Source of the DNA: Escherichia phage vB_Eco_F26
DNA length: 64,000 bases
Sequence record: OP870145.1
Direction: 5' to 3' (one strand)
Numbering within the stretch: position 1 is the stretch's first letter; every line of letters starts with the position of its first letter. The notes below the pieces were generated by a model, which saw only the letters and a program-made list of their open reading frames with translations, was not told the origin of the DNA and did no database searches. Shown piece by piece: positions 43,041-43,543 of this stretch. The position numbers and the translations under genes are program-made.

Positions 43041-43098
43041 AGATAATAGTATCACTACCTCATCAGCATGTAAACAACTTTGTGAAATTATTTTAAAT
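43041..43098. repeat. Promoter-containing direct repeat, copy B
   Basis: Same element as 42711-42768; contains early promoter 43046-43075. Confidence 0.7.
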
Positions 43099-43543
43099 CA
43101 TCTGCCCAATCGAGTTTAAGAGGCTCTTTGTATTCACGATCTAATACGACCGGAATTTGTACATCACCGCTAAATGATAAGGGTCCAACATTATAAGACA
43201 ATGTTATATGCGGTGTGTAATCATCAAAATCATGTGTAGCACCTAGTGCCCGCGCATACATGTGTCGACAACGCAGATATTCAGAATCTAGCACAAGTAC
43301 AAGAGTCGATCCATCTTGTGTTTTCCATACTTCTAAATGCCCAGAAGAAGCTACTTCAAAACTTCCGCTTGATGGAACATACGGAACATTTACTCTTGAA
43401 TAACATATGGTCGAATGAATTTTTTCTCTAGGAACTGGATTAGGAACACGTAAAGAGCGCTGGAGTTCTTCCAGCGCATCAAGTGTTAATTCTGAAAACT
43501 TAGCTGCTACATAAAGACCCGTTGAAAAGTCTTTAAATTCCAT
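43088..43543 (-). CDS. 57B: 2H phosphoesterase Acb1 (gene 57B), anti-CBASS cyclic-nucleotide phosphodiesterase
   Basis: 151 aa; two H-x-T/S motifs (HSTICY, HITLSY) of the 2H/LigT fold; position between 57A and ipI as in T4. Confidence 0.8.

Follow-up and report, generated by a model that had tools for sequence, protein, structure and literature searches.

An intact anti-CBASS gene, acb1 (gene 57B), beside a variable internal-protein slot in the T2/T6-like Escherichia phage vB_Eco_F26

Introduction

Does a small gene whose orthologues public records often label "RNA ligase" or "hypothetical protein" encode the anti-CBASS nuclease Acb1 in Escherichia phage vB_Eco_F26, and does its position beside an internal-protein (IP) gene mark the locus as an anti-defence island? 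Both claims were made in an initial annotation of the window, that is, the whole 64,000-nt stretch of DNA analysed here (record OP870145.1). The window is a T2/T6-like Tequatrovirus mosaic, with T2, T6 and OE5505-type phages as its nearest relatives (matching at 96–97% identity across 7 kb, in several segments).

The T4 protein provides the reference for this question. Activity-guided fractionation of infected cells yielded T4 Acb1 as the 3'3'-cGAMP-degrading factor, its activity is seen approximately 15 min into infection, and cGAMP-degrading activity is gone from lysates of T4 lacking acb1 (PMC9117128). In vitro, it stops activation of the effectors Cap5, Cap4, and CapV, and the deletion mutant grows normally without CBASS, whereas its replication drops >300-fold when CBASS is active (PMC9117128). 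Catalysis depends on an HxT/HxT tetrad comprising H44, T46, H113, and T115, and the H44A/H113A double mutant of the T4 protein is catalytically dead; bases are stacked by Y12, W74, F107, and W147, adenine N6 is contacted by E141, and a C-terminal lid (residues 145–152) closes over 3'3'-cGAMP (PMC9117128).

Results and Discussion

Identity of the gene

The gene occupies 43088..43543 on the minus strand, with an ATG start, 151 codons for amino acids, and a TAA stop that lies inside the end coordinate; exactly one long ORF, this one, spans the interval in the ORF listing of the window. The initial annotation had recognized a 2H phosphoesterase by two motifs, HSTICY and HITLSY, and both are indeed present, at residues 43–48 and 112–117 of the product, respectively. 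Among the five histidines of the protein, H-x-T occurs at these two places only. Shuffling the protein sequence nevertheless produced at least two HxT motifs in 2.3% of shuffles, and at least two Hx[ST] motifs in 17%, so the two motifs by themselves say little in favour of Acb1, and reasoning from motifs is insufficient without homology.

Homology gave a far more specific answer. Aligned against the T4 (NC_000866) and T6 (MH550421) loci, the product was 100% identical at the amino acid level to residues 2–152 of T4 gp57B/Acb1 (NP_049750.1) and to T6 57B, and it matched the full length of the Pfam family PF23474, "Anti-CBASS protein Acb1" (202.7 bits, gathering score 27, E = 2.6e-60, positions 1–144 of a 144-position profile). 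The identity with the T4 protein and the Pfam score bear out the identification as Acb1 (57B) that had been made from motifs. A PDB sequence search returned as top match the Acb1 entries 7T26/7T27 (E = 4e-62, residues 8–148), followed by the more distant Acb1 entries 9Q2G and 9Q2Y. NCBIfam has no model for Acb1. The DNA of the gene differs from that of T4 at 8 of 456 nt and from that of T6 at 2 of 456 nt, and since the proteins are identical, all of these differences are synonymous. Exclusively synonymous change relative to T4 and T6 therefore points to purifying selection on the minus-strand frame. Two plus-strand ORFs lie within the gene (43246..43431, 61 aa; 43260..43403, 47 aa), and we treated them as antisense noise because the substitutions separating the window from T4 and T6 are all synonymous in the minus-strand frame.

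The published functional residues could be mapped directly once the start codon was reconciled. At 43541–43545, the window and T6 read TAATG where T4 reads ATGATG, and the annotated first Met of T4 is not conserved; the junction between genes 57A and acb1 is GAATGATGG in T4 and GAATAATGG in the window and T6. The conserved acb1 start corresponds to the second Met of T4, so that residue numbers in T4 are one higher than in the window. H43, T45, H112, and T114 of the window protein thus equate to the published tetrad H44, T46, H113, and T115, with the first catalytic H-x-T (H43-S44-T45) encoded at 43409..43417 and the second (H112-I113-T114) at 43202..43210, both on the minus strand as located by codon position and alignment. 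All nine published functional residues (the tetrad, Y12, W74, F107, E141, and W147) were found at their expected positions. The C-terminal lid, residues 144–151 (145–152 in T4 and FBB1), is encoded at 43091..43114 (minus strand), includes W146 (equivalent to W147), and is identical to that of T4, the protein ending in DWADDLK. Alignment to T4 Acb1, proposed with the initial annotation as a check, places the catalytic histidines H43 and H112 on T4 H44 and H113.

The tetrad was likewise retained over much greater distances. In an alignment of eight sequences, comprising the window protein, Acb1 of FBB1, and homologues from phages of Serratia (Muldoon), Escherichia (Skers, a Krischvirus), Aeromonas (60AhydR15PP), Acinetobacter (DLP3), Vibrio (PC-Liy1), and Salicola (SCTP-2), the phage homologues besides FBB1 ranged from 66% down to 30% identity, and H43, T45, H112, and T114 were invariant, among 13 invariant columns in all. 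The structures 7T26 (apo) and 7T27 (with 3'3'-cGAMP) are of Acb1 from Erwinia phage FBB1 (PMC9117128), to which the window protein is 68% identical in an alignment of 141 aa that contains a single one-residue gap. The two proteins share length and the HxT/HxT tetrad, which aligns with that of 7T26, but FBB1, whose host belongs to another genus (Erwinia), has F in place of W74 and Y in place of F107. At 68% identity to the 1.1 Å crystal structure 7T26, the window protein probably adopts the same compact 2H phosphoesterase fold. This assignment rests on homology to 7T26 because single-sequence AlphaFold2 produced a model of too low confidence to use (mean pLDDT 37.9, pTM 0.30).

Taken with T4, the similarity extends to all 151 residues and to placement between 57A, which the gene directly follows, and the IP slot; the differences are the one additional Met in the T4 annotation, the eight synonymous nucleotide changes, and the downstream gene, which is ipI in T4 and ip5 in the window. 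Homologues of Acb1 occurred in 1470 phage records, 498 of which hold a protein at least 99% identical. The interval 43088..43543 thus almost certainly encodes Acb1, the T4 gene 57B product, a 2H phosphoesterase degrading CBASS cyclic nucleotides. This is an already known and characterized protein, and the reading is not a novel one.

The label "RNA ligase" nonetheless deserves consideration, as the gene could instead encode a generic LigT-like 2H enzyme acting on RNA (a 2'-5' RNA ligase or cyclic phosphodiesterase engaged in tRNA or RNA repair) rather than an immune-signal nuclease. The product matches PHROG 755, described as "RNA ligase", its RefSeq orthologues are annotated in the same way, a tRNA cluster lies approximately 1 kb from acb1, and Pfam 2_5_RNA_ligase2 gives a weak, sub-threshold match. 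Acb1 does share with the wider 2H superfamily (LigT/2'-5' RNA ligase, PF13563) the two H-x-T/S motifs and metal-independent acid-base chemistry via a cyclic phosphate, but it differs in being a compact single domain with a C-terminal lid specialized for cyclic di- and trinucleotides. The RNA ligase match scores 13 bits, far under its threshold of 27, compared with 202.7 bits for the Acb1 family, and "RNA ligase" is an inherited superfamily name, not a tested function. Moreover, it is cGAMP that T4 Acb1 degrades, and the T4 deletion mutant is impaired only under active CBASS (PMC9117128). These genetics and the sub-threshold Pfam score largely refute an RNA ligase identity, which we regard as very improbable.

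A different concern is whether acb1 has become a liability, or is decaying, in this lineage under pressure from Panoptes (mCpol/2TM-beta). T4 Acb1 also degrades 2'3'-c-di-AMP, the catalytically active protein suffices to trigger Panoptes toxicity, and some T4-like phages have acb1 nonsense mutations, such as that in the Bas43 homologue (PMC12657230). Against this, the acb1 frame in the window is intact and full length, and its differences from T4 and T6 are all synonymous. We rejected decay on these grounds, an intact frame and purely synonymous divergence indicating purifying selection, and consider it the least probable of the readings weighed here.

Gene neighbourhood

Genes around acb1 on the minus strand follow the order gp2 (DNA end protector), gp3, gp1 (dNMP kinase), 57A, acb1, ip5, trna.4, trna.2, and ten tRNAs. 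Gene 57A (43543..43785, minus strand; Pfam GP57, E = 2.6e-50) encodes a tail-fibre assembly chaperone, and its TAA stop and the ATG of acb1 overlap in the sequence TAATG. Genes 57A and 57B also abut or overlap in T4, T6, OE5505, Muldoon, Skers, 60AhydR15PP, DLP3, and PC-Liy1, and such a junction is kept in five other genera. Based on the overlapping TAATG, acb1 may be co-expressed with 57A through translational coupling. Matches to the late-promoter consensus TATAAATA numbered 12 in the whole window, compared with 11.6 expected. One match, at 44141–44148 (minus strand) within gene 1, could drive late transcription of 57A and acb1, but statistically it cannot be told from chance.

From Tequatrovirus to Schizotequatrovirus and Muldoonvirus, phages share the block gp3-gp1-57A-57B, while the small genes past 57B are different in every genus examined. 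Acb1 therefore marks the border between a conserved module and a plastic region. In the Krischvirus Skers, the variable region that follows the Acb1 homologue includes, three genes away, a homologue annotated as Dmd (an antitoxin against RnlA/LsoA), which hints that the plastic region after 57B gathers counter-defence genes in other genera too.

Further downstream, the window departs from its relatives in several respects. The trna.4 homologue (42505..42687, minus strand; PHROG 1692), which forms the downstream boundary of the IP slot, encodes a predicted membrane protein of 60 aa that equals Trna.4 of T4 and T6 except at the last residue. At 42495–42515, trna.3 (411 nt in T4) is absent, and the end of trna.4 is fused to the start of trna.2 (AAAGGT running directly into TGATAATG). 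AGGT microhomologies occur at the ends of both trna.4 and trna.3 in T4, and trna.3 seems to have been lost by deletion between them; the best 15 phage-database matches all retain an extra 385–415 nt at the trna.4/trna.2 junction. Ten tRNAs (Arg, His, Asn, Tyr, Met, Ser, Pro, Gly, Leu, and Gln) are encoded at 40644–42117 on the minus strand, compared with eight in T4 (Arg, Ile, Thr, Ser, Pro, Gly, Leu, and Gln). OE5505 has the tRNA set of the window apart from tRNA-Gln, whose place is taken there by an HNH endonuclease gene. Between tRNA-Met and tRNA-Ser lies a 161-aa ORF (41172–41657, minus strand), assigned to PHROG 16521 ("unknown function") and hypothetical in the OE5505 annotation, with no match in Pfam or NCBIfam and no nuclease motif established. 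Its placement resembles that of the homing-endonuclease insertions in the T4 tRNA cluster (segB).

The IP slot and its flanking repeats

Polymorphism at the IP locus was reportedly first described by Repoila and colleagues in 1994. The immediate downstream neighbour of acb1 in the window is ip5 (42758..43015, minus strand), an IP cassette gene of 85 aa whose product has the N-terminal leader MKTFKEFATKTTITE, is 100% identical to Ip5 of T6 and RB15, and matches PHROG 3499, "internal head protein" (E = 1e-49). No Pfam family above threshold, NCBIfam family, or PDB match was found for Ip5. BLASTP similarity between Ip5 and T4 IPI was confined to the first 26 aa, 14 of which are identical (the MKTFKEF...TITE leader), and a leader of this capsid-targeting type (MKT[FY][KQ]EF...) was common to all eight ip genes compared. 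By the cleavage rule of T4 gp21, leaders of T-even internal proteins would be expected to end at an [I/L]-x-E prohead-protease site. Ip5 thus resembles T4 IPI (IPI*, the GmrSD inhibitor) in occupying the same slot between 57B and trna.4, in having the same type of leader, and in lying downstream of the same promoter-like box, but the mature parts of the two proteins are unrelated in sequence.

The content of this slot varies among close relatives. It holds ipI in T4, ip5 and ip6 in T6 and OE5505, and ip5, ip9, ip7, and ip8 in RB15 (gene content read from GenBank Z35082), whereas the window has ip5 alone. The claimed adjacency of acb1 to a variable IP cassette is thus confirmed, the neighbour being ip5, and the term "variable" is justified because the slot carries one to four different ip genes among T4, T6, and RB15. 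At 42687–42758, Ip6, which comes next after Ip5 in T6 and OE5505, is absent, leaving a single IP cassette between acb1 and trna.4. Across the phage collection, approximately 268 records have Ip5 at 80% identity or more, and approximately 280 have IPI at 80% or more.

The ip5 cassette is flanked by two copies of a 69-nt direct repeat, 83% identical and 330 nt apart. The upstream copy (43035..43103, minus strand) covers the last acb1 codons and the promoter-like box preceding ip5, and the downstream copy (42705..42773, minus strand) covers the last ip5 codons and the same box preceding trna.4; both take in the end of the gene before them, four codons reading GAT TTA AAA TAA (D-L-K-stop), and in acb1 the repeat reaches into the codons of the C-terminal lid. 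Each copy also holds a promoter-like TTTACA-17-TACTAT, the upstream one at 43074..43046. A scan for sigma-70-like promoters was at chance level overall, with 10 sites compared with 9.9 expected. The two TTTACA-17-TACTAT sites are notable despite this because in T4, T6, and RB15 each ip gene is followed by the GTTTAC...GTGATACTATTA box. Conserved repeats lie on either side of each of these cassettes. We consider the 69-nt repeat a candidate recombination and expression module for IP cassette exchange, and recombination between boxes and leaders is the natural reading of how cassettes are exchanged. Such exchange agrees with the polymorphism recorded in GenBank Z35082 (Repoila et al. 1994).

Mode of action and anti-defence context

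The initial annotation had stated that T4 Acb1 cleaves cyclic oligonucleotide immune signals, in agreement with the literature (PMC9117128). Because the window protein is identical to T4 Acb1, the published biochemistry and genetics apply here, and its chemistry and in vivo effect would be those carried over from the T4 literature. Acb1 would be produced by the T-even phage during infection as a small, metal-independent 2H phosphoesterase and would bind the signals of CBASS CD-NTases, namely 3'3'-cGAMP, cUA, cAAA, and other adenosine-containing cyclic di- and trinucleotides, whereas cGG, cA4, and the 2'-5' bond of 3'2'-cGAMP would not be cut. Aromatic stacking and closure of the C-terminal lid would strain the ligand, acid-base catalysis by the HxT/HxT tetrad would allow the adenosine 2'-OH to attack the 3'-5' bond, and cleavage would proceed via a cyclic-phosphate intermediate to a linear product. 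With the signal gone, CBASS effectors would stay inactive and the phage would evade abortive infection.

Whether the locus is an anti-defence island is a less certain matter. T4 Acb1 adjoins ipI, which encodes a GmrSD inhibitor, an arrangement described as consistent with anti-defence clustering (PMC9117128), and T4 Ip1, Ip2, and Ip3, carried in the head and delivered along with the DNA, each inhibit a distinct GmrSD enzyme (PMC12373910). Ip5 is not mentioned in the latter study (PMC12373910), and because it is without a reported target in the sources consulted, the island label rests on inference here. The locus has one demonstrated counter-defence gene (acb1) and one putative (ip5), flanked by the 57A chaperone, the dNMP kinase, the uncharacterized small ORFs trna.4 and trna.2, and tRNAs. 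The claim of an anti-defence island therefore stood in part: acb1 is demonstrated and its pairing with an IP gene is published for T4 (PMC9117128), and ip5 is a putative member. To speak of an "anti-defence island" at acb1-ip5 is a reasonable inference that repeats the published T4 argument. Somewhat short of an even chance, in our estimation, is the more specific possibility that Ip5 is an injected inhibitor of a specific GmrSD-type (Type IV) enzyme and that the acb1-ip slot is a site where restriction inhibitors are swapped by recombination next to a fixed anti-CBASS gene.

For public annotation, the result is a correction, in that a gene labelled "hypothetical protein" or "RNA ligase" is an intact, fully conserved anti-CBASS nuclease, Acb1; it has little significance beyond this. 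As to Ip5, it is reasonable to regard its cassette as a candidate for a new injected inhibitor of restriction. For the phage itself, the finding predicts that it should resist CBASS systems using adenosine-containing 3'-5' cyclic di- and trinucleotides and, conversely, that it may be sensitive to Panoptes-type systems, which fire upon breakdown of decoy nucleotides by Acb1.
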